The notes beneath the pieces are model-generated. The model worked only from the letters and a program-made list of their open reading frames with translations. It was not told the origin of the DNA and ran no database searches. Below are positions 30,446-61,926 of a stretch of DNA of 64,000 bases, in pieces. The position numbers and the translations under genes are program-made. Position 1 is the first letter of the stretch. Each line of letters starts with the position of its first letter. The stretch is from Candidatus Latescibacterota bacterium (GTDB taxonomy: Bacteria; Latescibacterota; CBDEFO01): the NCBI GenBank assembly GCA_965248755.1, contig OZ252149.1, positions 832,001 through 896,000 of the forward strand, read 5' to 3'.

Positions 30446-31733
30446 TGTACTGCCCCCCAGAAAAGCGACATCAATTAAGCAACTTGGGGTAGCAGATAAA
30501 ATTGTTTTCTCCACTCTTCCGGGGTCTTGTATCCCAGGGATGAATGAAGCCTGTTCTTGTTGTAATTATCGATCCACTGAGATATGATCTTCTCAGCTTG
30601 TTCAAAGGACTTGAAATTGTGAAGCCACACACACTCCTGCTTGAGGGTCCTGAAAAAACGTTCTATGACCCCGTTCCAATCGGCCTTTCCGCTCGGAATA
30701 TATTCTTGACGAATGTCCCAATATTCGGTACTTGCCAAATAGGTCCGAGACAAAAAGATGGAGCCGTTGTCAGAGCGCAAAGTGAGACCCTGGGGGACAG
30801 CCTCCTTAGGAAGTGTATCGAGAGATCACGGCCCGATCCAGGGCATCTGTGGCCTCCAGTGCCCTCCCTTTTCGACTAAAACGATACCCGGGGAACCTCC
30901 CGACTCCCGTTGTCCACCACCGCAATAAGAGGACACCAACCATCTTCCCCACAATAGATCTTGGTCAAGTCAGCCGACCAGAGACTGTCAGGACGATCCA
31001 TCACAGAACGCTTCTGGGCAACCTGTGGCCCCTTTCTCCCGGGGTCCCCGATTGATTCTATCGGGGATTCCACAGCTTACACTGCCACCCCTTAAGCTTC
31101 ATTATCCTATGAACCTTCTTGATGTTGACATATGCCCCTTCCTTGAAACGAAGATGCGCCCAAACCCGCCTGTGACCAAATGCCTCTTCTTGGTCGAGTA
31201 TCCCTCGAATACGAAAAGCAAGCTGTTCATCTATCACAGACTCTTCGACAGAAGAACTGACACCTCTATACCTAAGCCTACACAGAGTCGAACGATGCAA
31301 ACCCAAAGCCAAAGCTACCACCTTCCGGGAATAGCCTCGACCCAAAAACCGCTCACTCAAGGCAACCGCTTCGTTTTTTTTAGACGGGCTACCTCCTCGA
31401 GTATCTCCAACTGGAGGGTTAAGTGCCCTACCTTACGCTCCAACCGGCTGACCTCCCGCTCCTTCGCATCCTTGCGACCACGCCGAGACTTCAGACTCTC
31501 CTGGCCTCCTTCCAAGAAACTATCACGCCAAGCATACGCCTGTGACTGGCTAATTCCATTCTTCCAACACACCTCTGATACATTCGCTCCTTTCAAAACA
31601 GCCAACACCACCTCTACCTTACGGGTCGCCGTCCAGCGCTTACCATCTTTCACTTCGGGGCTTGACACCTTGACCTCCTTTCTCAAACCCCAATTTGCAA
31701 AATATTTGTCGCCCTGTCAAGGGGAGCGGTATG
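30446..31733 (-). mobile_element. IS3-family variant B (1288 bp, orfB broken), 4-bp TSD GGTA
   Basis: Diverged from A; orfB split by a net +20 palindromic insert and two +1 indels; GGTA on both sides. Confidence 0.93.
31045..31067. repeat. Short palindromic element copy inside IS3-B orfB
   Basis: TCCCCGATTGATTCTATCGGGGA, absent from variant A. Confidence 0.9.
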
Positions 31734-32055
31734 GGTATCGCAAGATATTTATCCACGAAACTTTGAATTGTCCCAAAATGATTTGGGTAATTAGAGAGCT
31801 TTTTAGAAGCAAAGTAAGCGTGGCTTTTTATTTCATTTATAGCCACATTTGTGTGAGTTAATACGCAAATACCCCTATTATTTTCAAGAGGCATTTGCCG
31901 GGACAAAATCAACAACTTGGCAATCAAAGCCTTTGTTTTACCACTACCCGGGCAGGCAAGAATATCTTTGGTTTCAAAACATTTTATTACTACCTTTTGT
32001 TCTTTATCGAAGTGCTCACCGGGCGGTAAAAGAATTCTTTCTGCCCAAGAAATAT

Positions 32056-33321
32056 TGTACTGCTTCCCAGGAAAGCGACACCAATTAAGCAACCTGGGGT
32101 AGTAGATAAAATTGTTTTCTCCACTCTTTTGGGGTCTTATATCCCAGGGATGAATGAAGCCTGTTCTTGTTGTAATTATCGATCCACTGAGATATGATCT
32201 TCTCAGCCTGTTCAAAGGATTCAAACTTGTGAAGCCAAACACACTCTTGCTTGAGGGTCCTGAAAAAACGCTCTACAACACCGTTCCAATCGGGTTTACC
32301 ACTTGGTATGTATTCCTGACGAATTCCCCAATATTCGGTACTGGCCAAATAGGCCCGAGCCAAAAAGATGGAACCATTGTCAGAGCGCAAAGTGAGACCC
32401 TGGGGGACAGCCTCCTTGGAAGTGTATCGAGAGATCACGGCCCGATCCAGGGCATCTGTGGCCTCCAGTGCCCTCCCTTTTCGACTAAAACGATACCCAG
32501 GAACCTCCCGGCTTCCGTTGTCCACCACCGCAATAAGAGGACACCAACCATCTTTTCCACAGTAAATCTTTGTCAAGTCACTCGACCACAAACTGTCGGG
32601 ACTATCCACCACAGAACGCTTCTGGGCAACCTGTGGCCCCTTTCTCCCGGGACGATTCCACAGCTTACACTGCCACCCCTTAAGCTTCATTATCCTATGA
32701 ACCTTCTTAACGTTGACACATTCCCCTTCCTTGAAACGAAGATGCGCCCAAACCCGCCTGTGACCAAATGCCTCTTCTTGGTCCAGTATCCCTCGAATAC
32801 GAAAAGCAAGCTCCTCATCTATCACAGGCTCTTTAACAGAAGAACTGACACCTCTATCCCTAAACCTATACAGAGTCGAACGATGCAAACCCAAAGCCAA
32901 AGCTACCACCTTGCGGGAATAGCCTCGACCCAAAAACCGCCCACTCAAGGCAACCGCTTCGTTTTTTTTAGACGGGCTACCTCTTCGAGTATCTCCAACT
33001 GGAGCGTCAACTGCCCTACCTTGCGCTCCAACCGGCTAACCTCTCGCTCCTTCGGATCCTTGCGACCACGCCGAGACTTCAGACTCTCCTGGCCCCCTTC
33101 TAAGAAACTATCACGCCAAGCATACGCCTGCGACTGGCTAATTCCATTCTTACGACACACCTCAGATAGATCTGCTCCTCTCAAAAGAGCCAACACAATC
33201 TCTCCCTTACGGGTCGCCGTCCAGCGCTTACCATCTTTCACTTCGGGGCTCGACACCTTGACCTCCCTTCTCAAACCCCAATTTGCGAAATATTTGTCGC
33301 TCTGTCAAGGGGAGCGGTATG
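32056..33321 (-). mobile_element. IS3-family variant A, copy 3 (no TSD)
   Basis: Same ORF translations as copy 1; flanks ATAT / TTCT. Confidence 0.95.
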
Positions 33322-34024
33322 TTCTCATCCTGATGTGACATTTATTAATCCTTCTTCTGGTACAGAATTAGGCGGTACATCTGTCACGTTAGTAGGGGAC
33401 AATTTCCAAAGTGGATTAACCGTTACTTTTGGGGATAGCTCAGCCACAGATATAGTCGTAGTATCCTCCACCATCATCACCGCTAAGACTTCCTCATATC
33501 CAGCTGGCACAGTGGATGTGATAGTTACAAATCCCAATGGTCTTTCAGACACACTATCTCATAGCTTTGAGTTTATTGGGATTCCCCCTGTTATGACATC
33601 TATTGATCCTAATACAGGCACACAATTGGGAGGTACATCTGTGACGATAGTAGGCAGTAGTTTCCAAAGTGGATTAACCGTTACTTTTGGAGATAGCACA
33701 GCTACAGATATGTTCGTAGAATCTTCTGATACTATTACTGCTGCATCGCCTGCTTATCCTGCTGGCACGGTGGATGTGATAGTTACAAATCCCAATGGTC
33801 TTTCAGACACACTATCTAGTGGATTTACTTTCGTTAGCGTCCCTGACATTGTAGGAGATTTTGACGGGGACAAGGAAGTAGGCCTTTCAGATTTTGTCCT
33901 TTTTCTGGATGTGTTCGGGGCGACAACCACTCCAGCTAATTCTATATTTGATTTAAACGGTAACGGAGAAATCGGTCTATCTGACTTTGTGATCTTTCTG
34001 GATAACTTCGGTAGTTCAGGTTAG
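33322..34024 (+). pseudogene. IPT/TIG-repeat protein, C-terminal fragment 4 (2 IPT domains plus dockerin/EF-hand-like domain)
   Basis: IPT repeats then duplicated Ca-binding loops GDFDGDKEVGLSDF / DLNGNGEIGLSDF. Confidence 0.88.
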
Positions 34025-34204
34025 TTTTACGATCAGAGACACATGGATTTGTGAAGACACGGAAGCTGATATTGATGAAATAGGCTCTTCCCATCGTGTC
34101 AGAGGGAGAATGTCTGACCCACCAAGTGATAGGGTGCAAGGTTAAAGTCAACAGCGACCGCAATGGGCGTAAAGAGTCCGTCACGGTCGCTGTTTCTATT
34201 TCAA

Positions 34205-34246
34205 TCCCCGACCTCCAATTGAATCTATTGGGGGTTCAATCGGGGA
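34205..34246. repeat. Nested pair of short palindromic elements
   Basis: TCCCCGA[CCTCCAATTGAATCTATTGGGGG]TTCAATCGGGGA. Confidence 0.8.
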
Positions 34247-34262
34247 TCAATCCGGATAATTT

Positions 34263-37200
34263 CTACGTCACCTGTTCTATTTCTTCCTCAACTTCCACCT
34301 GCCTCCCAAGTAGCCTTGCGCCCAGGCACTTGAGATCCTCAAGGATGAAGTAGCCTACGGGGACGAGCAACAGGGTGATAAAGGTCGCGAACAGGACTCC
34401 GAACCCGAGAGAGATAGCCATAGGTATGAGGAACTGCGCCTGCAGACTCCTCTCTAACAGCAGGGGCGTGAGTCCGGCAAAGGTGGTCAAGGATGTGAGC
34501 AAGATGGGACGGAAGCGAGCCACACCTGCCTGCCGAAGTGCCTTCTCTATGGGGGTTCCATCCGCCCGTGTGCGGTTGACAAAATCGACCATGATCAAAC
34601 TGTCGTTTACTACCACACCGGTAAGCGCAACGATGCCGAACATCGACAGGATGGTCAGGTCCATTCCCATTATGATGTGTCCCCATATCGCTCCGACCAC
34701 GCCGAAGGGGATAGCGGCCATAACGATTAAGGGCTGTATGTAGGAGCGGAAGGGGACAGCCAAAAGGGCGTAGATCATCAGCAGGGCGATCAAAAAGCCG
34801 CGTTTTAAGCCATCTAAAGTTTCGCTCTGCTCCCGCTGTTCGCCTTCGAGGGAGTAGCTGATCCCAGGATGGTCTGCGAGCAGCTTGGGCAGGGCCGAAC
34901 CGGTAAGATCGGCTAATATCTCATTTGCATTGGCCTTGCTCTGATCTACATCGGCTGTGACGTTGACGGTGCGCCGGCGGTCGGTGCGTTGAATGGCAGC
35001 ATAGCCGCGCCCGAGTTTGGCGGTTGCCGCAACGGAAAAGGGAACTTCCCCGCCTGAGGGAGTTCGAATGCGCATGTTTTCCAGGTCGCCGAGGGAGCGC
35101 CGACCATCGGCGGGGTATCGCACCATCACGCGGATGTCGTCGCGGCCGCGCTGGATGCGTTGTGCCTCTTCTCCGTAGAAGGCTTGTCGCACCTGGCGCG
35201 CAAGATCAGAGAGGGAAAGACCTAAAGCCTCAGCGGCAGGCGTGATGGAGAGTTCGACCTCCTGTTTTCCGGGTCGGAAGGAGTCTCTAATGTCGATGAC
35301 GCCGGGATAGTTGTTCAACCTTCTCTTAAGTTCGTCCGCCACTACCTTCAACTGATCGTAGTCTAATCCCCGATTGAATCTATCGGGGACAGCAAGCTGG
35401 ATGTTGATGGCCTCGCCGGTGGAGAAGAGAGACGAGGTGAAGGTCAGCTCCTGAGCGTCGGGGATAGGACCGGTAAGGTTGCGCCAGCGGCTGGCGATCT
35501 CGGGACTGGTGATGCTCCGCTCCTCAGAAGGGGCCAGTTCGATGTTAACTTCTCCGAGATGGGCGCCTGAAAAGGAGCTGGTGCTTTGGCCCGGACGGCT
35601 CTGACTTGCGCTAAAGGGGTGTTCACCGATAGAAGCCAGGACGTGGCGGAAGACTCCGTTGTGTATTCCTCCTCCTTCAGCTTCGAGTTCTTTGCGCAGC
35701 TTCTGGGCACTCTCTTCAAGGCGTTGCACGGCATCGGCTGTGACCTCGACAGGCGTCCCCTGCGGCATTGTCAAGAGAGCGACGACGTTATCCGCATCCA
35801 CATTCGGGAAAAAGAGGAACTTGATCCAGCCGCCGCCGACCAGACCGGAAGTGATAAGTAAGATGGACACGCCGATGGCAAGTGTAAGATAGCGCCAACG
35901 CAGGCCCAGCTCTAAAATAGGGCGGTAGACCGTGTCGACGAAGCGCCGCATCTTTCCCGCGAAGCCCTCCTGGAATCTCCCCCAGATGCCGCGTATCCCC
36001 CGAGACGGATCAGGCTGGCCCTTCGACCTGGAGTGAGACAGATGTGCGGGCAAGATGAACAGCGACTCCACAAGGGAAAATAAAAGGGTGGGGATCACGA
36101 TGAGCGGAATGAACTTCATAATCTTGCCCATGTTCCCCGGCACGGACAATAGGGGAGCAAAGGCCGCTACTAAGGTCATAACCGCGAAGATCACCGGCGT
36201 TGCTAACTCCTGGGCACCGTCGACAGCGGCGCGCAGGCCTTTTTTGCCTTTCTGCTGATGCGTGTAGATGTTCTCACCGATGACGATGGCGTCGTCGACG
36301 ACGATTCCGAGCACAGCGATGAAGGCAAAAAGCGAGATGAGATTGATCGAGACGTCGAAGGTCGGCATCAGCCAGATGGCTCCCAGGAAGGAGATCGGAA
36401 TCCCCAGTGCGACCCAGAAGGCAAGGCGCAGCCGCAAAAAGAGCGCTAAAGAGAGAAAGACCAAAACCAGACCGGCCCGGCCGTTGCGGATCAGCAGGTC
36501 GAGCCTGCCCCTAAGGATCCTTGAAAAGTCCTGCCAGATAGTCAGAGTAATCCCTTCAGGCATGCGGGGCTGAGCCGCGCGGACATAGTTCTTGATCGCT
36601 TCGGCGACCTCTAATGCATTCTCTTCCCCGACCCGGAAGACCTGCACCATGACAGAAGGCTTGCCATCGAAACGCGCAGACTGATCGGTGTCAGCAAAGC
36701 CGTCCACGACCTGTGCGACGTCACCCAATCTGAGTCGTGTGCCGTCCGGGAAGGAGCGGAGGATGAGGTCCTCAAATTCTCCCCCTCGGTAGGCCTGACC
36801 CTTTGTACGCAGAAGTATCTCGCCTCCTGAAGTCTTCACAGACCCTCCCGGAAGGTCCAAAGACGAGCGGCGCACCGTACGGACGACCTCATCGAAGGTG
36901 AGGCCATAGCGCTGCAGAGCATCTTCGGAGACCTCTATAGAGATCTCATACGGCCGGGCGTTTGAGAGTTCCACCTGGGTTATCCCGGGCAGGGCGGCGA
37001 TCTCGTCCCGAACCCGTTCGCCGAGGTATTTGAGCGTTACCTCATCGGCATTGCCCAAGATGGCAACGTTTATGACTTGGCGGCGAAGTATTACCTCCTG
37101 GATAACCGGTTTCTCGGTCTCTTCAGGGAAGGTATCGATAGCGTCAACTCGGTTCTTGATGTCGTCAAGGAGCTTGCGAGTATCAACTCCAGGCAAAAGT

Positions 37201-37484
37201 TCCACCGTTACAACACCGACACCCTCCACGGCGGTGGAGGTGATGCGCTTAATGCCCTCAAGGCTCTGTATCTCCTCCTCAATGCGTATGCAGACACCTT
37301 CTTCTACCTCTTCGGGAGCGGCGCCGAGATAGACTACGGAGACAGTGATAAGCTCGGACGAGAACTCGGGGAAGATCTCCTGCTTAAGGCTCATAGCGGT
37401 CAAAACACCGCTGACCAAGATCAAGAACATAAGGAGGTTTGCAGAGACCCTGTTTTCGGCAAACCAGGCGATGGCGCGATTCAT
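34263..37484 (-). CDS. RND efflux permease (AcrB/AcrD/AcrF family)
   Basis: 1073 aa, 'GIVVDDAIV.GEN', 'RFRPILLTSLTT'. Confidence 0.95.
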   Translation of the reverse strand: MNRAIAWFAENRVSANLLMFLILVSGVLTAMSLKQEIFPEFSSELITVSVVYLGAAPEEVEEGVCIRIEEEIQSLEGIKRITSTAVEGVGVVTVELLPGVDTRKLLDDIKNRVDAIDTFPEETEKPVIQEVILRRQVINVAILGNADEVTLKYLGERVRDEIAALPGITQVELSNARPYEISIEVSEDALQRYGLTFDEVVRTVRRSSLDLPGGSVKTSGGEILLRTKGQAYRGGEFEDLILRSFPDGTRLRLGDVAQVVDGFADTDQSARFDGKPSVMVQVFRVGEENALEVAEAIKNYVRAAQPRMPEGITLTIWQDFSRILRGRLDLLIRNGRAGLVLVFLSLALFLRLRLAFWVALGIPISFLGAIWLMPTFDVSINLISLFAFIAVLGIVVDDAIVIGENIYTHQQKGKKGLRAAVDGAQELATPVIFAVMTLVAAFAPLLSVPGNMGKIMKFIPLIVIPTLLFSLVESLFILPAHLSHSRSKGQPDPSRGIRGIWGRFQEGFAGKMRRFVDTVYRPILELGLRWRYLTLAIGVSILLITSGLVGGGWIKFLFFPNVDADNVVALLTMPQGTPVEVTADAVQRLEESAQKLRKELEAEGGGIHNGVFRHVLASIGEHPFSASQSRPGQSTSSFSGAHLGEVNIELAPSEERSITSPEIASRWRNLTGPIPDAQELTFTSSLFSTGEAINIQLAVPDRFNRGLDYDQLKVVADELKRRLNNYPGVIDIRDSFRPGKQEVELSITPAAEALGLSLSDLARQVRQAFYGEEAQRIQRGRDDIRVMVRYPADGRRSLGDLENMRIRTPSGGEVPFSVAATAKLGRGYAAIQRTDRRRTVNVTADVDQSKANANEILADLTGSALPKLLADHPGISYSLEGEQREQSETLDGLKRGFLIALLMIYALLAVPFRSYIQPLIVMAAIPFGVVGAIWGHIIMGMDLTILSMFGIVALTGVVVNDSLIMVDFVNRTRADGTPIEKALRQAGVARFRPILLTSLTTFAGLTPLLLERSLQAQFLIPMAISLGFGVLFATFITLLLVPVGYFILEDLKCLGARLLGRQVEVEEEIEQVT
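35367..35389. repeat. Short palindromic element inserted in-frame in the RND permease
   Basis: TCCCCGATTGAATCTATCGGGGA, read as VPDRFNRG. Confidence 0.85.
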
Positions 37485-38695
37485 CTTGCAACCCCTCGGA
37501 TCACAGCAGAGGCATCCTCATCTCCCATAGGTTCATCGGGCATAGTGCGCACCCGCATTCCGTCCGTCACAGCGTCCAGCGGAGAAAGACAGACACGCTC
37601 CTGGCAGGTCAGTCCCGAGCGGATTACCACTTCCTTCTTATCGGCGCGTAGGACCTCGACAGTGCGGAAGTGGAGCCGGTTTTCATCGTCGACGACCAGG
37701 GTCTGGTTGTGACTCCGCATCGCTCCACGCGGCAGCACGGTTACATCTTCAACCAGTCGGCCAATGATTTCAGCCTCCACAAAGAGGCCCACAGCTAACG
37801 GAGGCCTTTGGGGTTCGTCGCCGCGGCCGTAGGGGTTTTCGACCCGCGCGACGGCGTGGACCATGTGGCTTTTCGGGTCAATCTCTCCCTCGAGGCGCAC
37901 GATGTGGCCTCTCCAACTGTGCTGACGGCCGGCAAAGGTCGAACTCAGGATGACTTCCGGACCGCGGCGGTGTACTGTATCTCCTCGAAAGTCGAGCGGC
38001 AGGTCCAAAAAGGCGAGCTGATCATCGGGAATAGGCAGTCGGACCTCGGCGTAATCGACTGCGTAGATTTTCGCTGAAGGTGCACCTCGGTTTACAAATT
38101 GGCCGACGTCAACGCTCTTTGTGCGGACTCGGCCGGCGTACGGCGCGCGGATCTCGGTGCGCTCCAGATCGAGTTGGGCCTGCTGCAAGACAGCTTGGGC
38201 AGCGGCTAGGTCAGCTCGGGCCTGTGCTAATTGAGGGCGTCGTACGACCAACGGGTGAGGCTTTCCCTGTCCCAGGAGCTCCCATTCACGGCGGGCTACG
38301 TCTGCCTCTTCTTTCTCCCACGCCAGGCGTAGCCTCCCCTGCGCTACCTGTGCCTGCGCGCGCACTAACGCCAGTTCGTAGTCACTTGGGTCGATGGTGA
38401 CTAAGAGGTCACCGGACTCAAAGAAGCCACCCGCAGCAAATGCCGGAGATACAGCTATCACGCGTCCAGATACCTGAGAGATCAGGGTGCTTTCGGTGCG
38501 AGGAGTAACGCTCCCTTGCGAGCGAACCCTCAGTTGAAGGTTCTGACGTTGCACGGTGAGAACCCGAACCAGCGGTGCGGGGACTGCTGCTGGTCGGGAT
38601 TCGACAGCCGTCCGAGCTTTAACTAACACTATTAAGCCCACAATTCCCAGAGCGAGGACAACGAGTGGAAGGATAATCTTTAATTTTCTGTTCAT
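37481..38695 (-). CDS. RND membrane fusion protein
   Basis: TM anchor, lipoyl-like 'SQVSGRV', helical hairpin, 'IRAPYAGRV'. Confidence 0.92.
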   Translation of the reverse strand: MNRKLKIILPLVVLALGIVGLIVLVKARTAVESRPAAVPAPLVRVLTVQRQNLQLRVRSQGSVTPRTESTLISQVSGRVIAVSPAFAAGGFFESGDLLVTIDPSDYELALVRAQAQVAQGRLRLAWEKEEADVARREWELLGQGKPHPLVVRRPQLAQARADLAAAQAVLQQAQLDLERTEIRAPYAGRVRTKSVDVGQFVNRGAPSAKIYAVDYAEVRLPIPDDQLAFLDLPLDFRGDTVHRRGPEVILSSTFAGRQHSWRGHIVRLEGEIDPKSHMVHAVARVENPYGRGDEPQRPPLAVGLFVEAEIIGRLVEDVTVLPRGAMRSHNQTLVVDDENRLHFRTVEVLRADKKEVVIRSGLTCQERVCLSPLDAVTDGMRVRTMPDEPMGDEDASAVIRGVAR

Positions 38696-40128
38696 GGTGT
38701 ACTAGCCCCAGTATCAAGTAGTTCTGCAGAATCAGTCACGAAACCTCCGCCGAGAGCTAAATACAGGTCAATACGGGCATCCAGCCGCCCTCGGCGGACG
38801 GCGAGCAGTTGGCTTTCGGCCTCAAAGGCACGCCTTTGTGACTCGAGCATAGTGATGAGATCGGTCAGGCCACTGGCGTACCGATCCTCAGCAAGCCTGC
38901 GTGCGGCTAAGGCCTGCTCGGCAGCAGTTTCCAAAGCCTCTTGCTGCTTGACCAGAAATCCTTCGGCCGCCAAAGCAGCCTCCACCTCGGCGTACGCCCT
39001 GAGGACGCTCTGGGCGTATAGTGCCAGTGCCCCTTCGGACTGAGCATTGGCAAGATCGACGCCGGCCCGCAGGCGACCTCCCTGAAAGAGAGGCTGTACC
39101 AAGTTGCCGACCAGATTCCAGACCGCAAAGTCTCCGTTCAAAAGATCGCTCAGTTCGTTACTGGCAGTGCCCCCAGAGGATGTTAGACTAACTCTGGGAT
39201 AGAGTGCAGCACGGGCCTTGGTCACGCGGGCATCGGCAGCGGCGAGTTGACGCTCGGCCGCAATCAAGTCCGGACGGCGCGCCACCAGGTCTGCCGGTAG
39301 ACCAGCAGGGACACTATCAGGAACCTCTGGGAGTTCTTCTCCCACTGCGATGACCGCGGCGGGATAGCGCCCTAACAACAGTTCGAGTTGCCGCTGCACG
39401 TTATCCAGTCGTTCTTGCCTCTGCTGTAGGGTGGCTTCGGCTGTGGCCACATTAGAAAGCGAAAGGCGCAGATCCAGCGAGGGGCGCAGTCCGCGTTCGT
39501 AGCGGACTCGCACCTGCTGGCTGGAGGTACGGAAGTTCTCGACCGTCGCCTGGGCAAGTTCCACCTGGCTCCTGGCTTCGATGGCCGAAAACCACACCTT
39601 GGAGGTCTGACCAGCAAGTGAAAGCTTGGCGGCTCTCAGGTCCGCCTGCGAAGCCTGCAGATCCGCCAGGGCAGCCGATTTTTGCGCACCCAGCCGACCC
39701 CACAGATCCACCTCCCAGCTTGTGTCCAGAGAGACGCCAAAGCTGTTCGAGATCGAAGTTAGAACACCCCTCCTACCCGGGATAGGAAATCCGATGAAGT
39801 TCTGCCGACGCCGGTAGGCGTTAAAGTTAAGTCCGGCCTGAGGCAGCAACGGAGCACCGGCAATACGGGCCTGTGCAGAAGCAGCATAAAGTCGGGCAGC
39901 AGCGATCTGCAGGTTGTAGTTATAGGTTAGGGCCTCGGCCACCAGTTCCTCTAATTGAGGATCGCCGAAATGGGACCACCAGAGGGTGTCGCCGGGCATT
40001 TCCGTGTTGACAGCGGCAGTCCACCGATCGGGCGTTGCAACCCAGCGATTGGGATTCTGTGTCTTCGGCGCCGATGCGCAGGCCGCGGTCAAGAGAGGAA
40101 TTACCAAAAATAGGAATTTGACTCTCAT
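38692..40128 (-). CDS. RND outer-membrane factor lipoprotein (NodT/OprM family)
   Basis: Lipobox LTAAC, 'WWSHFGDPQL', 'SWEVDLWG', 'RRPDLIAAE', 'LYLALGGG'. Confidence 0.93.
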   Translation of the reverse strand: MRVKFLFLVIPLLTAACASAPKTQNPNRWVATPDRWTAAVNTEMPGDTLWWSHFGDPQLEELVAEALTYNYNLQIAAARLYAASAQARIAGAPLLPQAGLNFNAYRRRQNFIGFPIPGRRGVLTSISNSFGVSLDTSWEVDLWGRLGAQKSAALADLQASQADLRAAKLSLAGQTSKVWFSAIEARSQVELAQATVENFRTSSQQVRVRYERGLRPSLDLRLSLSNVATAEATLQQRQERLDNVQRQLELLLGRYPAAVIAVGEELPEVPDSVPAGLPADLVARRPDLIAAERQLAAADARVTKARAALYPRVSLTSSGGTASNELSDLLNGDFAVWNLVGNLVQPLFQGGRLRAGVDLANAQSEGALALYAQSVLRAYAEVEAALAAEGFLVKQQEALETAAEQALAARRLAEDRYASGLTDLITMLESQRRAFEAESQLLAVRRGRLDARIDLYLALGGGFVTDSAELLDTGASTP

Positions 40129-40193: not shown

Positions 40194-40216
40194 TCCCCGA
40201 TTGAATCTATCGGGGA
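40194..40216. repeat. Short palindromic element copy, intergenic
   Basis: TCCCCGATTGAATCTATCGGGGA. Confidence 0.9.
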
Positions 40217-41825: not shown

Positions 41826-42040
41826 TAGAGTTTGTCTCCTTAAATAGACAGTAGAAACATTGTTATCTATCCCCATTTGATAAATATACTGTAATTGGGT
41901 TTATCGGACAAGAAAAAACCCGCAATGACATTGGTTGCATCTTACCTTCGGTTATTGCGAAGCGCCAAACCCCGGCCCCGTCAGTAGGCGCTATCCGAAG
42001 GAACGCCAAGGGAAACCAGAAACAATCTCTGTGATAAGTA

Positions 42041-42256
42041 GTCGCAACCTCTTCCAAGGTCGTAACCTCTTCCAAGGTCGTAACCTCTTCCAAGGTCGTA
42101 ACCTCTTCCAAGGTCGTAACCTCTTCCAAGGTCGTAACCTCTTCCAAGGTCGTAACCTCTTCCAAGGTCGTAACCTCTTCCAAGGTCGTAACCTCTTCCA
42201 AGGTCGTAGCCTCTTCCAAGGTCGTAGCCTCTTCCAAGGTCGTAGCCTCTTCCGAG
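42041..42256. repeat. Tandem repeat, 12 x 18 bp (GTCGTAACCTCTTCCAAG)
   Basis: Unit 1 GCAA variant, units 2-9 identical, units 10-12 GTAGCC variant; no spacers. Confidence 0.97.
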
Positions 42257-42924
42257 CCAACTTTATGTTGTTTCACCAGCGCGTTCTCATATTATATATA
42301 CAACTTATTGATAGAGATCATACTTAAATCCATTTTCCCCTTGTCAGATAAACTCACAAACAGTATATTAAGTCTCTTTGAAGGGCGCAGCATATTTTTC
42401 TAGATATAGCTAAGAAGACTTGCCGCGGAAGGACCAAACAATTGAAAAAACTTAACGAGGCGTTGCTATGGTAAAAATTGATGTCTCAAAGTTTAAGCAG
42501 AGTCGAAAGGCGAATGCAGGAGAGGCTTAGCCTAAATCTTAACCTTCGCCTACCTTTACCGGGAGCGTGACCCGGGAGCGTGAGAATGATGATTTCTTCA
42601 ATCGACGCTTATTCACCGCGACAGATCGCGCAGAAGGTCGAAGCCTTGGGAGTGACAAAAGCTCGGAGCGATACCTTAAGCATATTAGTCTTGGCTGTGC
42701 TGGCTGGCCTGTCTGCGCCAGGGAGCAGGAAAGGAAAGTGCTGATGCCTCAGTCGGCACGTGAGACCCTTTGTCTTATTGCAAAATCGAGTCAGGCACAA
42801 AGATATTAAAACGTAGTACCTCGTGTCACACTCCTGTATCCCCCCTTAATAAGGGGGGAATTAAAGGGGGGTCGCTAACTTTAGCGTTGATAAAAAATCA
42901 ACAATTTAGAAGCAGGAGTTGCAT

Positions 42925-46577: not shown

Positions 46578-46643
46578 GTAGGGGCGAGGTTAACTCGCCC
46601 AAGGGCTGCCTCCGATAGATTCAATCGGGGGCCAGCCCCTACA
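46578..46643. repeat. REP-like element (GTAGGGGC...GCCCCTAC) carrying a short palindromic element (46609..46631)
   Basis: GTAGGGGCGAGGTTAACTCGCCC..GGGCTG[CCTCCGATAGATTCAATCGGGGG]CCAGCCCCTAC. Confidence 0.8.
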
Positions 46644-50155: not shown

Positions 50156-50160
50156 TCTGC

Positions 50161-52852: not shown

Positions 52853-52881
52853 AATTTAAGCTAAACCGTTCTGTTTGTCAA
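52853..52881 (-). promoter_or_regulatory. Sigma70-like promoter for the ptsH-metK-ahcY operon
   Basis: TTGACA-17 bp-TAAATT. Confidence 0.6.
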
Positions 52882-53067: not shown

Positions 53068-54192
53068 ATGGCTGAACTTTGCTGTGCAGAATGTGGACAG
53101 ATGTATCCCGGAAATTCTCCAGCTTGGAGATGTGAGTGCGGCGGCATATTGGACTTGGAGTACAAGGCGCGTTTCCCACTGAACCAGATAGAAAAAAGGG
53201 AGCCGACGCTTTGGAGGTACCGGGAGGCTATCCCAATATTGGATGACGATAATATAGTCTCTCTGGGTGAGGGCTACACTCCGTTGGTGGAGACGGACCT
53301 GAACGGAAGCAGATTTCTATTGAAGCTTGAGTATCTGATGCCATCGGGGTCTTTTAAAGATCGAGGGGCGTCGGTCCTCATAAGTAAGGCTAAAGAGCTT
53401 AAGGTGGACAGCTTAGTGGAGGATTCCTCGGGAAATGCAGGAAGCGCGATCGCTGCTTATTGTGCTCTTTGTGGAATAGAGTGCGAGATTTTTGTGCCTT
53501 TCGGAACTCCCGCAGGGAAATTGGCTCAGATTGAGGGATACGGCGCAAAGCTAAGGAGAATAGAGGGCTCAAGGGAGAATGTAGCTGAAGCTGCCTTAGA
53601 GCGGGCTTTCAACATCTATTACGCAAGCCACAGCTGGAATCCGTTCTTCTTACAGGGGACAAAGACGTTTGCATTTGAGGTATGCGAGCAGTTGGGCTGG
53701 AGAGCACCAGATGTGGTGGTGGTCCCTGTGGGCAATGGAACGCTACTCTTAGGGGCTTATATGGGTTTTAAGGAATTGTCCCTTGAGGGGATTATAGAGA
53801 GCGTTCCAAGAATCGTAGCGGTACAGTCTGCAGGGTGTGATCCGATTTGCAAGGCGTTCGAAGAAGGTTCAGATGCTCCGGCTGAGATCAAAAAGCGGGA
53901 TTCAATTGCCGATGGGATCGCAGTGGCGAAACCCGTAAGGGGAAGGCAGATATTAGCTGCTCTTAGGGAGGGCGGTGGCATGACTCTATCAGTGTCGGAC
54001 AAAGAGGTTGCCGATGCTCTCTGGATGCTGTGCGGAAAGGGACTCTACGTAGAGCCTACAGGGGCTGTGGCCCTTGCGGGGGCACTGAAGTACGTAGAAA
54101 ATAATGAAGATGGGAAGACAATTGTCCTCCCGCTTACAGGATCAGGGTTAAAGGAGAAAGAAAAGATGACCAACTTGTTGACTCGACATTAA
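53068..54192 (+). CDS. thrC: Threonine synthase-like PLP enzyme
   Basis: N-terminal Zn-ribbon, 'PSGSFKDRG', 'SSGNAG', 'PVGNG', 'VEPT', 'LTGSGLK'. Confidence 0.8.
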   Translation: MAELCCAECGQMYPGNSPAWRCECGGILDLEYKARFPLNQIEKREPTLWRYREAIPILDDDNIVSLGEGYTPLVETDLNGSRFLLKLEYLMPSGSFKDRGASVLISKAKELKVDSLVEDSSGNAGSAIAAYCALCGIECEIFVPFGTPAGKLAQIEGYGAKLRRIEGSRENVAEAALERAFNIYYASHSWNPFFLQGTKTFAFEVCEQLGWRAPDVVVVPVGNGTLLLGAYMGFKELSLEGIIESVPRIVAVQSAGCDPICKAFEEGSDAPAEIKKRDSIADGIAVAKPVRGRQILAALREGGGMTLSVSDKEVADALWMLCGKGLYVEPTGAVALAGALKYVENNEDGKTIVLPLTGSGLKEKEKMTNLLTRH

Positions 54193-54203
54193 AGGACATT
54201 CTT

Positions 54204-54656
54204 TTGGACAGCTTGTTGGACTACATCCGCAGCTTATTTCCCCTGTTATCGGGGGCCGGGATAGTATGTCTTCTGGTGTGGTTAGGTGTGAAATTGGCGG
54301 GAGTGGAGGGCGTTACAGCGGGCGGAATAGTAGTTGTGGGGGCTATCTACACTGTAGCAAGTCTGATGTTGAGTATGATTTTCAACTATACTGTATTACC
54401 CGGAGCAGTTATCATCTATACTCTGGGTATCTGTGTTCTCTTTTTACTGATCAGATTTCTATTTGAGACCTCGAACAGGGAGGCCCTTTTGAGTTTGGTT
54501 CCGCTTCTGGGGACGTCGGGATTATTTTTAGTATATGAGTTCTTAAACAGGCTTTCAAAGAAAGTTCCCTGGATCGGGATCATCGTGTCCGCAGCGGTCT
54601 TAGGGCTCTTGATCTCCAGGTACATTTCAAGAGGCCAAAAAGGGAAGAGTGATTAG
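54204..54656 (+). CDS. Hypothetical membrane protein
   Basis: About 5 hydrophobic segments; in an operon with neighbours. Confidence 0.6.
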   Translation: MDSLLDYIRSLFPLLSGAGIVCLLVWLGVKLAGVEGVTAGGIVVVGAIYTVASLMLSMIFNYTVLPGAVIIYTLGICVLFLLIRFLFETSNREALLSLVPLLGTSGLFLVYEFLNRLSKKVPWIGIIVSAAVLGLLISRYISRGQKGKSD

Positions 54657-55446
54657 TATGTTCGGTTTGCTGGGCTTTGTAGGTTATAAAACGAGGCGTC
54701 TTTTCGAGGTCGTAGCGGATATTTCCGCCTTCTCTCTGAGGACCTTAAGGGGGACCTTGGATTTCCACAAGCAGGGGTTTTGGACTTCTTTCGAGGTAGT
54801 GGTAAAGCAGGTATATTTTACAGGCCTGGAGGCTATACCGTTCCTGACTCTAGTCTCGCTGATTTTAGGGTCTGTGGTTATCATTCAGTCTCTACCACAG
54901 TTGATCGGCGTAGGAGCGCAGAGATTTATAGGGACAATATTAGTTATAGCGATCATAAGGGAGTTAGGCCCGCTCATAACAGCCGTCATCGTGATAAGCA
55001 GATCGGGAACTGCCATGGCTGCAGAATTGGCGACCAATAAAGTGGACGGGGAGATCGAGGCTTTAGAGGCCATGGGAGTGGATATGTTTAGATTCAGCGT
55101 GCTTCCCAGGATCATAGGTTGTATTATCTCTACGTTTTGTCTTATAATCTACTTTGATGTGATAGCCCTGGTGGGTGGGTTCCTGGTGGCGAGTTTTAAA
55201 CTGACTATGCCCTTGACGATTTATTTAGGTCACATATTCGATGCGTTGACGCTTACTGATGTGTATATAAGCTTTTCAAAAGGCGCCCTGTTCGGGATGA
55301 TCGTCGCTCTTTTCTCCTGCTACAACGGACTATTAGCTCATAGGGCAAGTTGGGAGGTCCCGGCAGTCGCAAGGGACGGTGTGATGCAGGCGATGTTCTT
55401 TGTGTTCGTATCGAGTGCGATTATCTCTGTCGCATTTTATCTGTAG
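54649..55446 (+). CDS. mlaE: MlaE-family ABC permease
   Basis: 'IRELGPLITA..SRSGTAMAAEL', 'EIEALEAMG..LPR'. Confidence 0.88.
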   Translation: MISMFGLLGFVGYKTRRLFEVVADISAFSLRTLRGTLDFHKQGFWTSFEVVVKQVYFTGLEAIPFLTLVSLILGSVVIIQSLPQLIGVGAQRFIGTILVIAIIRELGPLITAVIVISRSGTAMAAELATNKVDGEIEALEAMGVDMFRFSVLPRIIGCIISTFCLIIYFDVIALVGGFLVASFKLTMPLTIYLGHIFDALTLTDVYISFSKGALFGMIVALFSCYNGLLAHRASWEVPAVARDGVMQAMFFVFVSSAIISVAFYL

Positions 55447-55453
55447 TTGAATT

Positions 55454-56221
55454 ATGTCAGAAGACTATGCCATACAGTTCGAGAATGTCTTTGTAGAGAT
55501 CGATGGACGGCAGTTTATTAAGGGTATAGACCTTTGCATCAAAAGGGGAGAAAATTTTGTGCTCTTCGCACCGAGCGGGAGCGGTAAGTCGTTCTTCATC
55601 AGGCTTACACTGGGACTCTACAAGGCAAATCGGGGAGTTGTGAGAGTAAACGGAATAGATATTTCACAGTACGGAAGGTCAGAACTCCTGGATCTTCGAG
55701 AAAATTTGGGCACTGTCTTCTACAGGAACTTCGGACTGATAGGCAATATGACTGTGGCTGGGAATATATCTTTGCCTTTGAGCTATCATACAAAGATGAA
55801 GACGGATGAGATCGAGGGGAGGGTGAACGAGCTGTTAACGGTGTTAAACATTGAAAAGGAGAAAGATAAAAGGCCTTATCTTTTAGATAGTTATGTAAGT
55901 AGGAAAGTGGCACTGGCCAGAGCCCTTGTCCTTAATCCCGAGATCCTTCTGTGCGACGATCCGTCTCTTGGGCTATCTCCGTTGATGGTAAGGGATATAG
56001 TAGAGTCAGTCTTTACGCTGGAAAATCCGGGCCCGAAGGGAAAGCGCACGAATTTTGTGGCTGTGTCGGGGATAGAGCATTACACAAGCTTTGCAGATAG
56101 ATTGGCACTATTTAAGGATGGAAAGATACGGTTTGTCGGGACTTATGAAGAACTCCTGTCGTGCGAGGAGGATTGTGTTAAGGAGTTTATTCAAAAAGTC
56201 AATGTTGAAAAAGGAATATAG
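55454..56221 (+). CDS. MlaF-like ABC ATPase
   Basis: Walker A APSGSGKS, Walker B LLCDDP; degenerate signature motif. Confidence 0.8.
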   Translation: MSEDYAIQFENVFVEIDGRQFIKGIDLCIKRGENFVLFAPSGSGKSFFIRLTLGLYKANRGVVRVNGIDISQYGRSELLDLRENLGTVFYRNFGLIGNMTVAGNISLPLSYHTKMKTDEIEGRVNELLTVLNIEKEKDKRPYLLDSYVSRKVALARALVLNPEILLCDDPSLGLSPLMVRDIVESVFTLENPGPKGKRTNFVAVSGIEHYTSFADRLALFKDGKIRFVGTYEELLSCEEDCVKEFIQKVNVEKGI

Positions 56222-56264
56222 GAGCTTACGGAAAAGCTCATTTCAAGAAGATAGGTAACTCAAG

Positions 56265-56852
56265 ATGAACACCTCAATACATGACGAGGTTTTAGCAAGA
56301 GTAAAGCTTGGGGGAGATCTTGTGGGTGCGGACCTTTCTGGTGCCGACCTGGAAAATGTAGATCTTTCGGGTGTGGACATGACAAGGGCGAAATTAGACG
56401 GTACAAATCTTAAAGGGGCAAGGTTAATAGGAACGAGATTAGAGCATGCGAGCCTGAAAGAAGCAGACCTTTCAAAGGGCATTCTTAAGGTGGCCTTTTT
56501 AGTGCATTCGGATCTGGACGGGGCGAAGTTCGACGATGCGGACATGGAAGGAGCCTTCCTTTCGGGGAGCAATCTTAAGGGCGCAAGCTTCAGAAGGACA
56601 AATCTTAAGGATGCGAGATTCGGGGTTGTAAAATTCGGAAAGCCCAATGCCGAAGAACTGCCGACGTCGTTTAGGGGCGCAAATCTGGAGAACGCCTTCT
56701 TCTCTCAGGTGGACTTCAACGGCGTGGATCTAAGGGAGGCGAACCTTACAAAGGCTTTTCTGCACGAGGCCAAGCTCTACGGAGCGATATTGGACGGCGC
56801 TATTATGGATGGGGCGATTCTGAAGGGGGGTCACGGCTCTGAGAGGTTTTGA
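56265..56852 (+). CDS. Pentapeptide repeat protein
   Basis: A(D/N)LxG repeats throughout. Confidence 0.9.
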   Translation: MNTSIHDEVLARVKLGGDLVGADLSGADLENVDLSGVDMTRAKLDGTNLKGARLIGTRLEHASLKEADLSKGILKVAFLVHSDLDGAKFDDADMEGAFLSGSNLKGASFRRTNLKDARFGVVKFGKPNAEELPTSFRGANLENAFFSQVDFNGVDLREANLTKAFLHEAKLYGAILDGAIMDGAILKGGHGSERF

Positions 56853-56870
56853 ATGAGTAGAAAGTGGTCA

Positions 56871-57003
56871 GTAGCCCCGGATAGATTCAATCGGGGCGCT
56901 TGCCATGACAGTTTTAAGGTACCCGTAATAACCCAAGTCGGGCTACGTCACTGCACGTCCCTCCAGGTCATTACAAGGGGGATGAAATCCCCCGAAGCAA
57001 TCT
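56871..57003. repeat. Cluster of REP-like elements with a short palindromic element at 56874..56897
   Basis: GTAGCCC[CGGATAGATTCAATCGGGG]...CAAGTCGGGCTAC, followed by GTCATT...GAAGCAATCT. Confidence 0.7.
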
Positions 57004-57124
57004 TCCCGTATGCTGCTACTATTTTGACCTGATACTTAGCCTGATACTTAGCAATGTATAGCTTGGTCAGATATTTCATAAAGACGAGTATAGTCTTTCT
57101 CTTTATAGGCCTGGTGTCGGGCGG

Positions 57125-57339
57125 CTATATGATTGTGGCTCGAGAGATATTAGCCCGGATTTACCCGGCCAGGAGTAGGACAAAAATGCCTGCATCACCT
57201 CTGACGATACCCCCTTAACCCTTCCACCTAACTCCTGATTGTATTTCTCAATAAAGTAATCGACAAGGAAAAAGGGAAGGTCCTCGATATGCTCGCGTAG
57301 CGGCGGCAGGACGATAGGAACGACGTTAAGGCATAAGAA
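57125..57339 (-). pseudogene. Sigma-54 activator (NtrC-family AAA+) fragment
   Basis: Manual translation LNVVPIVLPPLREHIEDLPFLVDYFIEKYNQELGGRVKGVSSEVMQAFLSYSWPG, then degenerates; cut by IS1380. Confidence 0.8.
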
Positions 57340-58965
57340 CCGACATTCCCCATATCACATTCATGAGGGATTATATTTCGATACATTCTTGTTTCTGAAT
57401 TAATATTACCACTTTTACATTTTTCAACAAGTACTTTTTTCAATTAAAATAGTATTTTCCTCTGAATTATCACTTTCTTTGTGTTTAAATCCTCCAATTA
57501 GAGACACCTCTCCATCGACTCACAAAAAAATGTGGCAGTTTAAACAGAATAACATCGCAATCGTTCAATCCGGGATAATATTTCGGCAAATAACCTCTTG
57601 TCTATCCCAACCTCAGCCATTTGAAACGTAATATATCCGCTGTGTCTGACAATCTTCGCTCCGATTTTGATAAATTTCACGAGGAGGCTGCGTAGTGACC
57701 AGTGTTTGATTTTCTTCGGAAGAACAAAACGTCGCAGGAAGTTGCCCAAGTTGTAAGCCAGAACAAACAGCCAGAGCCTCACCTGATTGGAGACGAAACG
57801 CTTGCATGAGAGTCGGGTCCAGTTCAGAGCATACTTGCCCTCCTTAATCCACTGCTCAGCTCTGCCACGGCCATTGTAGAAGTGTACCACGCCTTCTGGC
57901 TTGGCGCTCATGTTGGTCACGATAAATCCCACTCTTGGGAATAACTCCCCTTGGTGCCATTCAACCTTGGCGACCACTCGCCTCGATTGATCCCAACTGG
58001 CCGCTTTATATTGAAATTCATATAACGATACAATCGGTTTCCTCGGCGGTCGTCCAACTGGCCGAGTCAGCAGGTATCGTATCTTTTCATAGAGTATCTC
58101 ATTTGCGGGAAGCCGAATGGCATACAAATAGCCGTTTCCCTCCAGATAATCATAAATCTCAGGCTTTGCGAATGCAGCATCGCCTCGAAAGTATTTCCTA
58201 TTCTTCTTGCTCTCGTATCTCTTGACGATCGGTTCCAGAACTTCCTTCCAACGATCAGCACTGTGAACATTACCAGAGCGAAGTAGGACTCCTTCACAAT
58301 CCCCGAACTGATTGAAGCAGAACACTGGATGAAAACAGGTACATCCGAAATGACCGTTGTAAGCTGATCCTTCCTGCTGGCCATGTACCGGACTCTCCGA
58401 ACTGTCCATGTCCAGAATGATTCGTTGATGCTGTGTTTTACTCATCGCTTTTTGAACCCACTTGCCATTGATATCTGACAAGTTTCTGAGATTGTCATGC
58501 TGAGTCAGTATATCAGTTTCAAAACGTCCTATCGTGTTGGAGCTGGCAGCTTGCCTGCCTTTGTCCTTCTTTCCGGTAATCGCTCGCATGACGGGATCAA
58601 CGGATAATCGCTCGGCGTCATTTACATCTTCATATCCTGCAAGACGGCTGTATATCGATTGACGCAGGAGAGTAGATATATCATGTTGGATATTACGGCC
58701 TGTGCGTTTATCGGTAAAAACCGCTGATACCGAATCAAATAATCCCAGTGCGTAATCAAGGTCACGATACGCAAGAAGTCCACCGTTTGATGTCACCTTT
58801 GCACCATGAAATTCAAGCTTTATTCCTCCATCAAAACCTACTTTCATTCTTTCACCCTCTGGATGATCAATATTTATCCGCCATTTATGAGTCTTATTTA
58901 TTGTAATATAACATGTTCTGGCGACTTTGACAACCATTTTTCGGGTCTAATATGGCGAATGGGGG
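57340..58965 (-). mobile_element. IS1380-family element, copy 3 (no TSD)
   Basis: Same transposase translation as copy 1, 1626 bp; flanks AAGAA / ATTAG. Confidence 0.96.
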
Positions 58966-59112
58966 ATTAGATGTACCTCTGCATTATCAGATAATAACAG
59001 CGCACGTTCATTTACTGCTTGTGGGGTTTATACTGATGATGATCATGGGCGTGGCGCTGTGGATGTTCCCGAGACTCCCAAAGGGCGACGAGGGATATAG
59101 TCCGGACTTGTC
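58966..59112 (+). pseudogene. Membrane protein fragment between two ISs
   Basis: 'ITAHVHLLLVGFILMMIMGVALWMFPR' TM segment with HxH; both ends cut. Confidence 0.6.
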
Positions 59113-61926
59113 TAAAAGCCTTGTGAAAAACCCTTAAATCGAACAAATAGTATAAAAACATTGACGGAGCAATCTCCATGTATTATATTATATCATTGAT
59201 AATATTATACATGGAGGAAATAATAACGCCACAAAAGAAGGAACAGACAAATCTGATATTTCACTATTTTCAGATGGAGGATTTAGTTCCCCAAGACCAT
59301 ATTCTCCGTCAAATTGATAAAGCGGTTGATTTTTCATTTGTACGAGACGTTGTGTCAGATTGTTATTGCTCTGATAATGGCAGACCCGGTATTGATCCTG
59401 AATTGTACTGCCCCCCAGAAAAGCGACATCAATTAAGCAACTTGGGGTAGCAGATAAAATTGTTTTCTCCACTCTTCCGGGGTCTTGTATCCCAGGGATG
59501 AATGAAGCCTGTTCTTGTTGTAATTATCGATCCACTGAGATATGATCTTCTCAGCTTGTTCAAAGGACTTGAAATTGTGAAGCCACACACACTCCTGCTT
59601 GAGGGTCCTGAAAAAACGTTCTATGACCCCGTTCCAATCGGCCTTTCCGCTCGGAATATATTCTTGACGAATGTCCCAATATTCGGTACTTGCCAAATAG
59701 GTCCGAGACAAAAAGATGGAGCCGTTGTCAGAGCGCAAAGTGAGACCCTGGGGGACAGCCTCCTTAGGAAGTGTATCGAGAGATCACGGCCCGATCCAGG
59801 GCATCTGTGGCCTCCAGTGCCCTCCCTTTTCGACTAAAACGATACCCGGGGAACCTCCCGACTCCCGTTGTCCACCACCGCAATAAGAGGACACCAACCA
59901 TCTTCCCCACAATAGATCTTGGTCAAGTCAGCCGACCAGAGACTGTCAGGACGATCCATCACAGAACGCTTCTGGGCAACCTGTGGCCCCTTTCTCCCGG
60001 GGTCCCCGATTGATTCTATCGGGGATTCCACAGCTTACACTGCCACCCCTTAAGCTTCATTATCCTATGAACCTTCTTGATGTTGACATATGCCCCTTCC
60101 TTGAAACGAAGATGCGCCCAAACCCGCCTGTGACCAAATGCCTCTTCTTGGTCGAGTATCCCTCGAATACGAAAAGCAAGCTGTTCATCTATCACAGACT
60201 CTTCGACAGAAGAACTGACACCTCTATACCTAAGCCTACACAGAGTCGAACGATGCAAACCCAAAGCCAAAGCTACCACCTTCCGGGAATAGCCTCGACC
60301 CAAAAACCGCTCACTCAAGGCAACCGCTTCGTTTTTTTTAGACGGGCTACCTCCTCGAGTATCTCCAACTGGAGGGTTAAGTGCCCTACCTTACGCTCCA
60401 ACCGGCTGACCTCCCGCTCCTTCGCATCCTTGCGACCACGCCGAGACTTCAGACTCTCCTGGCCTCCTTCCAAGAAACTATCACGCCAAGCATACGCCTG
60501 TGACTGGCTAATTCCATTCTTCCAACACACCTCTGATACATTCGCTCCTTTCAAAACAGCCAACACCACCTCTACCTTACGGGTCGCCGTCCAGCGCTTA
60601 CCATCTTTCACTTCGGGGCTTGACACCTTGACCTCCTTTCTCAAACCCCAATTTGCAAAATATTTGTCGCCCTGTCAAGGGGAGCGGTATGGAATTAGTT
60701 ATTCGAATGATCCTTATCGGCTATTTGTATAATTTGAGTGAGAATCGGCTTTGTCAGGAAGTGGCGATGCATGCGGCATATAGGTTGTTTTGTCATCAGA
60801 CATTTGAGGATGAGGTTCCAGACAGAAGCACGATCAACAAGCTTCGCAATCACAAGTGGGCATCTAGTGGATTGTTTGAACAGATAATGCGTCAGGTAGT
60901 CCAGCGCTGTATAGATGTCGGTCTTGTGAGCGGTAAACACTTAAGTGTTGATGGCACTCAGATACGAGCGAATGCTTCGGTGAAGAGTATTGAGCCGATA
61001 GAGCTTCCTGTTTCTCTTGATGACTACCTAAAGGAAATGGGTTTTGAAGGTGATAAGGTACAGGCCGAAGATAGGTCTGGGCATTCTCACGATAAGGACT
61101 TTCATGGTGAAAAGTGGACGAACCAGACGCACCGTTCGACTACAGACCCCGATGCTCTCTTATACAAAAAGTCAAAAGGCACGGGGGCTTCTCTTTCGTT
61201 TATGGGTCATGATCTCATCGACACAAAAAGTAGAGTAATCCTTGAGACACAGGGCACACAGGCGACAGCCGAGACTGAAAGTGCCCTTAAGATGGTTGAT
61301 GATCTTGAAGTATACACTATGCCCGAAGGCATTCAGACACTTACTGCCGATACCGGTTACGGTTCTGGTGGTTTTATCGCTGATATACTTGACTGGGGAA
61401 TCACACCCCACATTCCTCTGCGATCAGGTGAAGAGATTGAGCCAATTCCTACTTGGAAAAACAAGACAAATTTCGTACATATTCAGGCCAAGCGAGATAA
61501 GAAAGTGCGAGAGGCAAAGGCCAGGAATTATGCACGATCTATCTCATTGACATCTGACTACAGACTCTCCCAGAAGCTCCGCAAACGCAGTGAACATATC
61601 TTTGCTGAAGCCAAACAACAGCACGGTATGGGCCGAGCCCGTTACAGGGGATTGGCCTCACTGAATGAACAGTTAAATCTTGTTGCAACAGTGCAGAATC
61701 TCAAGAGGCTTGTATCCTTCATAAGAAGGAGAAAAGCGTCTATATGTGCCCTGTCTGTCAAAGACAGTGCATCCTGTTCTTCAAACAGCTTCTATTCCTT
61801 GCTGACCAGAACTCTGATGAGACTATTTTGCTTATTCCATAGCAAAACGATACGATATGCTACTGTTTGACCCATAATAAGCGTTTCAGACGCTGCCTAC
61901 AAGATAACTATTTCACAAGGCTTTTA
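59113..61926 (+). mobile_element. IS1182-family element interrupted by IS3-B
   Basis: 16-bp IR TAAAAGCCTTGTGAAA / TTTCACAAGGCTTTTA; transposase 'LVPQDHILR..GRPGIDPE|LVIRM..VDGTQIRANAS..STTDPDA..ADTGY..EHIFAEAK'. Confidence 0.9.
59404..60691 (-). mobile_element. IS3-family variant B, copy 2, 4-bp TSD GAAT
   Basis: Same lesions and palindrome (60003..60025) as the 30446 copy; removal restores IDPELVIRM. Confidence 0.94.

Follow-up and report, generated by a model that had tools for sequence, protein, structure and literature searches.

The window analysed here, a 64,000-nt stretch from a Candidatus Latescibacterota bacterium (GCA_965248755.1, contig OZ252149.1, positions 832,001 to 896,000), carries several copies of a 23-nt hairpin, Y-CCCCGA-N9-TCGGGG-R, which has been added at new sites in both orientations and is almost certainly mobile. 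Its insertion is not blunt: mostly two to six target bases are replaced, with a mode of four, and a minority of events duplicate four. The 23-mer favours other hairpin repeats and the TAGA of its own loop as targets, and it probably originated from the hairpin motifs that accompany the Ssn family of GIY-YIG nucleases.

The hairpin unit and its copies

An earlier note on this DNA had described a short palindrome in eight copies and proposed that it be counted genome-wide. The source genome (G000, 4.54 Mb in one contig) holds 530 copies at up to three mismatches, 105 of them exact, and these are evenly distributed along the genome. With the same tolerance the core is found at seven distinct places of the window (31046, 34213, 35368, 40195, 46610, 56876 and 60004; 11 strand-matches against 0.01 expected), exact only at 35368 and 40195, and a split outer copy at 34205-34246 completes the eight. 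The reported settings are likewise borne out: orfB of an IS3-family insertion sequence (IS), an AcrB-family coding sequence, a GTAG-type repetitive extragenic palindrome (REP) at 46578-46642, a nested copy at 34205 and an intergenic one at 40194. The eight sites are nonetheless not all independent, the copies at 31045 and 60003 being a single event that was copied along with its IS.

Conservation ends one base beyond the 21-mer core, and past this outer pair the 530 copies display neither further complementarity nor a conserved flank. The outer pair, said to stay complementary throughout, does so in 411 of the 530 copies (T-A in 250, C-G in 159) and fails to at 56875/56897, where it reads C...C; the congener (G001) has C...G there and another 43 bases after it. 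The predicted fold comprises an 8-bp stem and a 7-nt loop (z about -3), and the stem pairs covary, with compensatory changes at one pair in 32 copies (28 A-T and 4 T-A). A subclass bearing a one-sided CCTG or CTTG reaches 27 nt. Rfam gave zero matches within the 64-kb window, and no RNA holding the 23-mer is listed. A shorter 17-nt stem variant, CCCCGA-TTTAA-TCGGGG, was also observed in G000 (31 hairpins of that length, 17 with that loop), and it too nests through TAGA replacement.

Evidence for insertion

The IS3 family provides a direct comparison of filled and empty sites, since 15 of its copies genome-wide contain the hairpin and 56 do not, and the net gain of 20 nt in variant B relative to variant A was confirmed. 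The copy at 35367 adds seven residues to the AcrB-family protein with respect to 119 of 120 homologs, the sole exception being a 99%-identical protein, and the polarity of the change is therefore that of a gain. Further sites were obtained by comparing G000 with a congener set of 133 loci (60 G001 tiles, further congener-type loci and Latescibacterota-titled loci; 1.44 Mb with overlaps), some of which had been selected for carrying the element. Mapping succeeded for 138 of the 244 unique elements of this set (62 shared, 15 at clean empty sites, 32 nested or rearranged, 29 unclear) and for 107 of 550 elements from G000 (56 shared, 4 clean empty, 34 nested or rearranged, 13 unclear). Clean empty sites thus total 19, and empty sites internal to G000 occur as well. 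One of the former lies in the window (TTCA, 37532-37535); the congener carries the 23-mer there, as do contigs of runs X4, X5 and X8, and an X11 contig aligns across the site ungapped.

Open reading frames (ORFs) of at least 200 aa make up 74% of the genome and contain 104 of the 530 copies, 44 of which lie deep within genes and in frame. Outside ORFs of at least 150 aa lie 372 of 470 copies, and 65 of the 470 fall between convergent genes, an enrichment. The earlier note had named two outcomes at odds with its proposal, orthologous sites that are all filled and copies limited to promoters, and neither occurred; its description of a very short, non-autonomous inserted hairpin is hence supported. 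The 23-mer adds short loops to proteins and breaks transposases, and it may have secondary effects on RNA.

In a REP family with an empty TCGT site (G000, e.g. 103986 and 3243845), the filled copies share one junction and have the loop in either orientation, which suggests loop inversion or conversion after insertion.

Junctions and target preference

At the 19 clean empty sites the element replaces four nucleotides in seven cases, three in four, five in three and two in two; two of the remaining sites show a 4-nt overlap (one a clear duplication, the other with mismatched flanks) and one falls outside this range. Looser thresholds add one TCGA site. A T to C change at the next base accompanies the IS3 insertion and three of the four sites with a 3-nt replacement, so that all of these may be read as 24 nt exchanged for four. 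The outer pair travels with the element: T...A was obtained once at a TAGA target, and C...G at TTGA, CTAG and ACAG.

One exact target lies in the element itself. In 37 compound copies the TAGA of an older copy is exactly replaced by an inner copy, in the same orientation in 19 cases and in the opposite one in 18. Inner and outer variants are mixed among them, which speaks for repeated nesting events, even if some compound copies may have spread as a unit. The absence of target duplication noted earlier at the IS3 site does not hold in general, as shown by the TTCA site and by the 4-bp direct repeats present on either side of 20 of the 496 copies left after de-duplication (3.1 on average and 9-12 at most in shuffled controls). 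Inverted flanks are not above chance. Direct repeats of 3 bp are also in excess (44 versus 12.9); they were rejected as duplications, being mostly the CTA/TAG of heptamer repeats, where empty sites reveal a 4-nt replacement.

Read toward the element on both strands, YYNR occurs at the left junction in 101 and at the right junction in 114 of the 272 copies outside listed repeats, against a control of 12.5%. Among the 389 intergenic copies, 194 lie in or beside other repeats, with 97 in the arms of the element itself (control 0.4%), 77 by CGTC-type REPs (1.7%), 31 at heptamer repeats (1.3%) and 19 by GTAG REPs (0.3%), some of these repeat-associated copies having been multiplied by the host repeat. 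The leading junction tetramers in 450 flanks are TTGA (29, with 5.4 expected), TCTA (20; 8.4) and TCAA (19; 7.0), all of which are also tetramers of the loop. Targeting guided by the loop was considered but gained no support, none of 198 variant-loop copies having its own variant tetramer as flank, against 21 with the canonical one, in a comparison weakened by the possibility that loop variants post-date insertion.

Distribution across genomes

A one-mismatch pattern finds 356 copies in the congener, 341 in G000 and none in 39 other genomes of the phylum; of 168 phylum genomes, 3 match a broader exact pattern, one of these a single time. Latescibacterota-titled loci match G000 at 92-99%. Letter-identical copies occur in metagenome-assembled genomes (MAGs) titled Deltaproteobacteria or Thermodesulfobacteriota, and 17 of 61 genomes around one such MAG (G041) carry the element or close loop variants. 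The host range derived from this genome scan is a lower bound. Close variants are also present in eight viral-contig stretches, with ssn not found in the flanks fetched. An archaeal-labelled match, a single copy on a 3.5-kb contig, was not counted as a host.

Relation to Ssn motifs

In Deltaproteobacteria-titled MAGs, close loop variants of the 23-mer constitute the stem-loop of TGTC-tagged head-to-head dimers, and the untagged variant lies inside such dimers. When DNA alone was searched for pairs of inverted tagged hairpins spaced by about 300 nt, four metagenome loci emerged, two of which (the near-identical pair L179/L181) enclose a gene for a 94-aa GIY-YIG protein, the other two being repeat clusters. 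Judged by size, motif and flanks, the GIY-YIG proteins predicted between tagged hairpins probably belong to the Ssn family. In genome G191 the hairpins on both sides of an ssn gene are members of a 56-copy family whose sole difference from the Deltaproteobacteria subfamily is the outer stem pair, and in G202 tagged copies with the CCCCGA stem lie on both sides of the gene. Such element-like hairpins were found at only these two of the 25 ssn-like loci listed, most others having different tagged hairpins. The TAGATTCAA variant itself was not seen flanking an ssn gene; close variants do so (G191, G202, L179/L181). The congener has an intact ssn gene, and G000 retains six stumps, each consisting of the Ssn motif and the first 6-8 codons of the congener gene.

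Several smaller observations were made at these loci. In the ssn gene of G202 (L242:1400-1800) four nucleotides, TATG, are duplicated close to the start, with an apparent frameshift, and a different hairpin of 27 nt with a CCTG tag lies in the motif downstream of the gene. After one of the stumps in G000 come two CCTG-tagged 27-nt hairpins in tandem. The upstream flanks of L235 and L240 appear to contain other small hairpins inserted in the ssn-flanking motifs, which suggests a wider class of mini-inserts.

A possible mechanism

According to the available text of PMC11893778, Ssn binds and cuts single-stranded DNA beside hairpins of this kind, is active on half-sites in trans and cuts at a position that varies by a base. 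We consider it an even chance that the 23-mer is a non-autonomous element derived from a CGTC/TGTC-tagged, Ssn-related stem-loop that has lost its tag and tail, and that it is pasted by nick-primed copying; the specific assignment of Ssn as the nicking enzyme and mobiliser comes slightly short of even. An Ssn-family, hairpin-recognising nuclease, such as that of the congener, would nick at or near hairpins, and host repair would extend the two target 3' ends, each terminating in YYNR, on a donor hairpin or join them to it. Two nicks separated by 2-6 nt would lead to loss of the intervening bases (net +17 to +21), nicks around a single tetramer would yield the 4-bp duplication (+27), and within genes only in-frame outcomes would persist. 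We infer that one nick rule covers both junction classes. The substrate logic of Ssn, hairpins in single-stranded DNA and half-sites in trans, would account for the targeting of hairpin repeats and of the element itself. More tentatively, Ssn nucleases might be, beyond restriction-like cutters of single-stranded DNA, the autonomous partners of insertion elements of 20-27 nt, with a tag-less 23-nt hairpin crossing phyla unchanged and being swapped for four target bases in a nick-primed reaction; if true, this would join orphan repeats akin to the small dispersed repeats (SDRs) of Nostoc and the CGTC-REP/Ssn system in one mobility mechanism.

A number of results weigh against this interpretation. 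The ssn gene was not found in G000 with a 54-sequence hidden Markov model, whose positive control belonged to its training set, and despite this there are four clean sites filled in G000 and empty in the congener. The hairpin flanking the congener gene differs from the 23-mer, and an Ssn match at E<=0.001 was obtained in none of G041-G045 (MAGs of 1.5-2.4 Mb). Nor do the two distributions coincide, with Ssn matches in 60 of the 168 phylum genomes and the element pattern in 3, and with Ssn in 20 and the element in 17 of the 61 relatives of G041. A CGTC/TGTC tag with a following AT accompanies none of 487 stem matches in G000, and the TGTC-AT tag is needed by Ssn for cutting, as far as the accessible part of PMC11893778 reports. 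The published SRM pattern covers none of the 530 copies, though it also missed the ssn-flanking hairpins at all four control loci (L147, L179, L234 and L242); with the tag absent, the 23-mer is not classed as an SRM. Moreover, Ssn is a hydrolase without shown joining activity, and the available text of the same paper presents a role in mobility as a hypothesis only, cleavage and an effect on transformation having been shown and insertion not. Finally, replichore or transcription orientation bias was not seen (127 sense versus 133 antisense; p 0.39), and 66 of the 245 mapped sites are nested or rearranged and 42 unclear, so that not all of the sites can be read in a simple way.

Alternative mechanisms

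The chief alternative to the Ssn reading is template switching by the host. No dedicated enzyme would be involved here: at stalled sites that form hairpins, host replication or repair would copy the 23-mer through gene conversion or template switching, and a similar route has reportedly been proposed for the Nostoc SDRs. The variable junctions and junction-adjacent substitutions, the choice of hairpins and repeats as targets and a G000 genome in which no mobiliser was found are all in keeping with this process. We nonetheless regard it as rather unlikely: unique empty sites such as TCGA and ACGA lack donor-target homology, the exact and orientation-independent replacement of TAGA at 37 loci and the YYNR preference suggest a cutter, and letter-identical copies in another lineage need a vehicle.

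The earlier note had suggested an HUH/Y1 enzyme, either a RAYT or an IS200/IS605 TnpA, for which the tetranucleotide junctions and the CCTG/CTTG-tagged 27-nt subclass might represent guide or cleavage sites. HUH insertion of the IS200/IS605 type neither duplicates nor deletes its target, which counts against such an enzyme here. The hairpin itself, the tetramer preference, the one-sided tag, the 19 intergenic copies by GTAG REPs and the Y1 genes of G041, G043 and G045 are compatible with this proposal, but PF01797 was not found in G000 or G001, and the 17 Y1 loci of those three MAGs have no bracketing copies, merely two lone element-like hairpins. In addition, what is accessible of PMC3733652 describes CGTC repeats as lacking any association with transposases of this type. 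The proposal is therefore improbable, and the evidence favours Ssn nucleases and their motifs instead. The note had also pointed to nuclease genes flanked by dense copies; ORFs with copies on both sides do exist, and inspection by eye, with no Pfam scan made, identified no obvious nuclease among them.

A minimal miniature inverted-repeat transposable element, mobilised by any of the DDE transposases that abound here (IS3, IS1380 or IS1182/IS5-like), could be expected in so IS-rich a genome, and 4-bp duplications do occur. Yet most events delete target bases, duplications being confined to the 20 copies mentioned above, the ends of IS1380 and IS3, the only two families compared, are unlike the arms, and a 23-mer has no room for two ends that a transposase could bind; we deem this explanation very unlikely. 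Slightly less credit still can be given to the capture of small cDNAs or oligonucleotides at breaks, be it from a retron or reverse transcriptase product, by non-homologous end joining or by Cas1 integration. It would produce small junction deletions and duplications such as those observed, and G000 does encode two reverse transcriptases (L156, L158), but these enzymes were found in only two of seven element-bearing genomes, with none found in the congener, and Ku (0 of 5 genomes) and Cas1 (1 of 5) were found in neither G000 nor G001. A fixed functional site, such as a transcription-factor operator or a terminator, might be a palindrome located outside ORFs and between convergent genes, but this expectation fails because empty orthologous sites exist and copies lie beyond promoters, and with 44 in-frame gene copies, nesting, no orientation bias and a T-tract beside just 5 of 470 copies, it is the least credible of all.

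Comparison with known repeats

The Nostoc repeats SDR1-8, described by Elhai and colleagues in 2008 (Genome Res 18:1484), are said to measure 21-27 nt and to nest within copies of their own kind, within heptamer repeats and within mini-transposons, all of which was also observed here. The 23-mer, with its 27-nt subclass and 530 dispersed copies, resembles them in size and abundance, and also in empty/filled polymorphism, precise insertion and nesting. It differs in sequence and phylum, in being a near-perfect palindrome, in replacing about four nucleotides with a minority of 4-bp duplications, in having identical copies in a second lineage and in its link to Ssn motifs. The available portions of PMC4390886 and PMC2884548 describe SDRs as dispersed, possibly mobile repeats of about 20 bp, and the insertion of SDR5 into HIP1 as a precise event at a short target. 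Elements as short as the 23-mer therefore have a precedent in these SDRs (about 20 bp in the accessible text of PMC2884548).

Ssn NTS/SRM hairpins, as presented in the available text of PMC11893778, share with the 23-mer a near-identical stem-loop and hundreds of dispersed copies, whereas the 23-mer has no tag or tail and occurs as single inserts, also in genes. The CGTC-tagged REPs, including Neisseria dRS3 and Rickettsia RPE-4/6, are similarly short imperfect hairpins with translated intragenic copies, and the part of PMC3733652 that is accessible reports them without a dedicated transposase; the G000 copies differ from them in being tagless, in their longer loop and in not forming dimers. 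REP/REPIN-RAYT systems (PMC3116915, in its accessible part) are alike in that gene-less hairpins spread in trans, as opposed to the 23-mer, which has no GTAG tag, occurs as singlets rather than doublets and belongs to a genus in which no Y1 gene was found.

Neither this 23-nt repeat nor Ssn-driven insertion is described in the literature searched, which included few subscription papers and PMC11893778 without its supplements. In this family many sites are available in both the filled and the empty state, together with an exact hot spot, a rule for the junctions (mostly -4, sometimes +4) and candidate enzymes with near-cognate hairpins; the process can therefore be tested directly with oligonucleotides and a protein of 95 residues. 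We know of no demonstrated mechanism for the spread of 20-30 nt repeats.

Features of the window and ssn stumps

Table 1. Copies of the 23-mer and associated features in window coordinates, followed by the ssn stumps on the source-genome contig
Feature	Position	Strand	Remarks
23-nt hairpin (T...A) in orfB of IS3 variant B	31045..31067	-	net +20 vs variant A; breaks transposase frame
IS3-family element variant B, host of the 31045 copy	30446..31734	-	right end approximate
Compound copy: outer element, TAGA replaced by inner 23-mer	34205..34246	+	same state in congener
Inner 23-mer (C...G), compensatory G-C to A-T stem subfamily	34212..34234	-	
In-frame 23-mer in AcrB-family gene (34263-37484), +7 residues	35367..35389	-	
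Empty site TTCA in HlyD-family gene	37532..37535	+	congener filled: 23-mer + TTCA duplication (+27)
Intergenic 23-mer between phosphoenolpyruvate carboxykinase and outer-membrane efflux genes	40194..40216	-	congener: second nested copy (+17)
GTAG-type REP doublet hosting a copy	46578..46642	+	
23-mer (C...G) replacing 6-nt loop of REP hairpin	46609..46631	+	net +17 vs REP family members
Copy abutting truncated CGTC-type REP	56875..56897	+	43 nt of congener absent at right foot
IS3-B insertion in second IS copy	60003..60025	-	same event as 31045
ssn stumps in G000:C1	1272114, 1852134, 2714208, 2979199, 3031451, 3547896		

Three further features of the window were recorded. One or more genes for a surface protein with IPT/TIG repeats (19738-33800) are fragmented by IS3 and IS1380 copies, and a UvrD-like fragment beside IS3 (28869-30377) is one of 18 near-identical ORFs genome-wide. 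An 18-bp tandem repeat of about 17 units occupies positions 41987-42292, where one run X5 contig is shorter by 180 bases.

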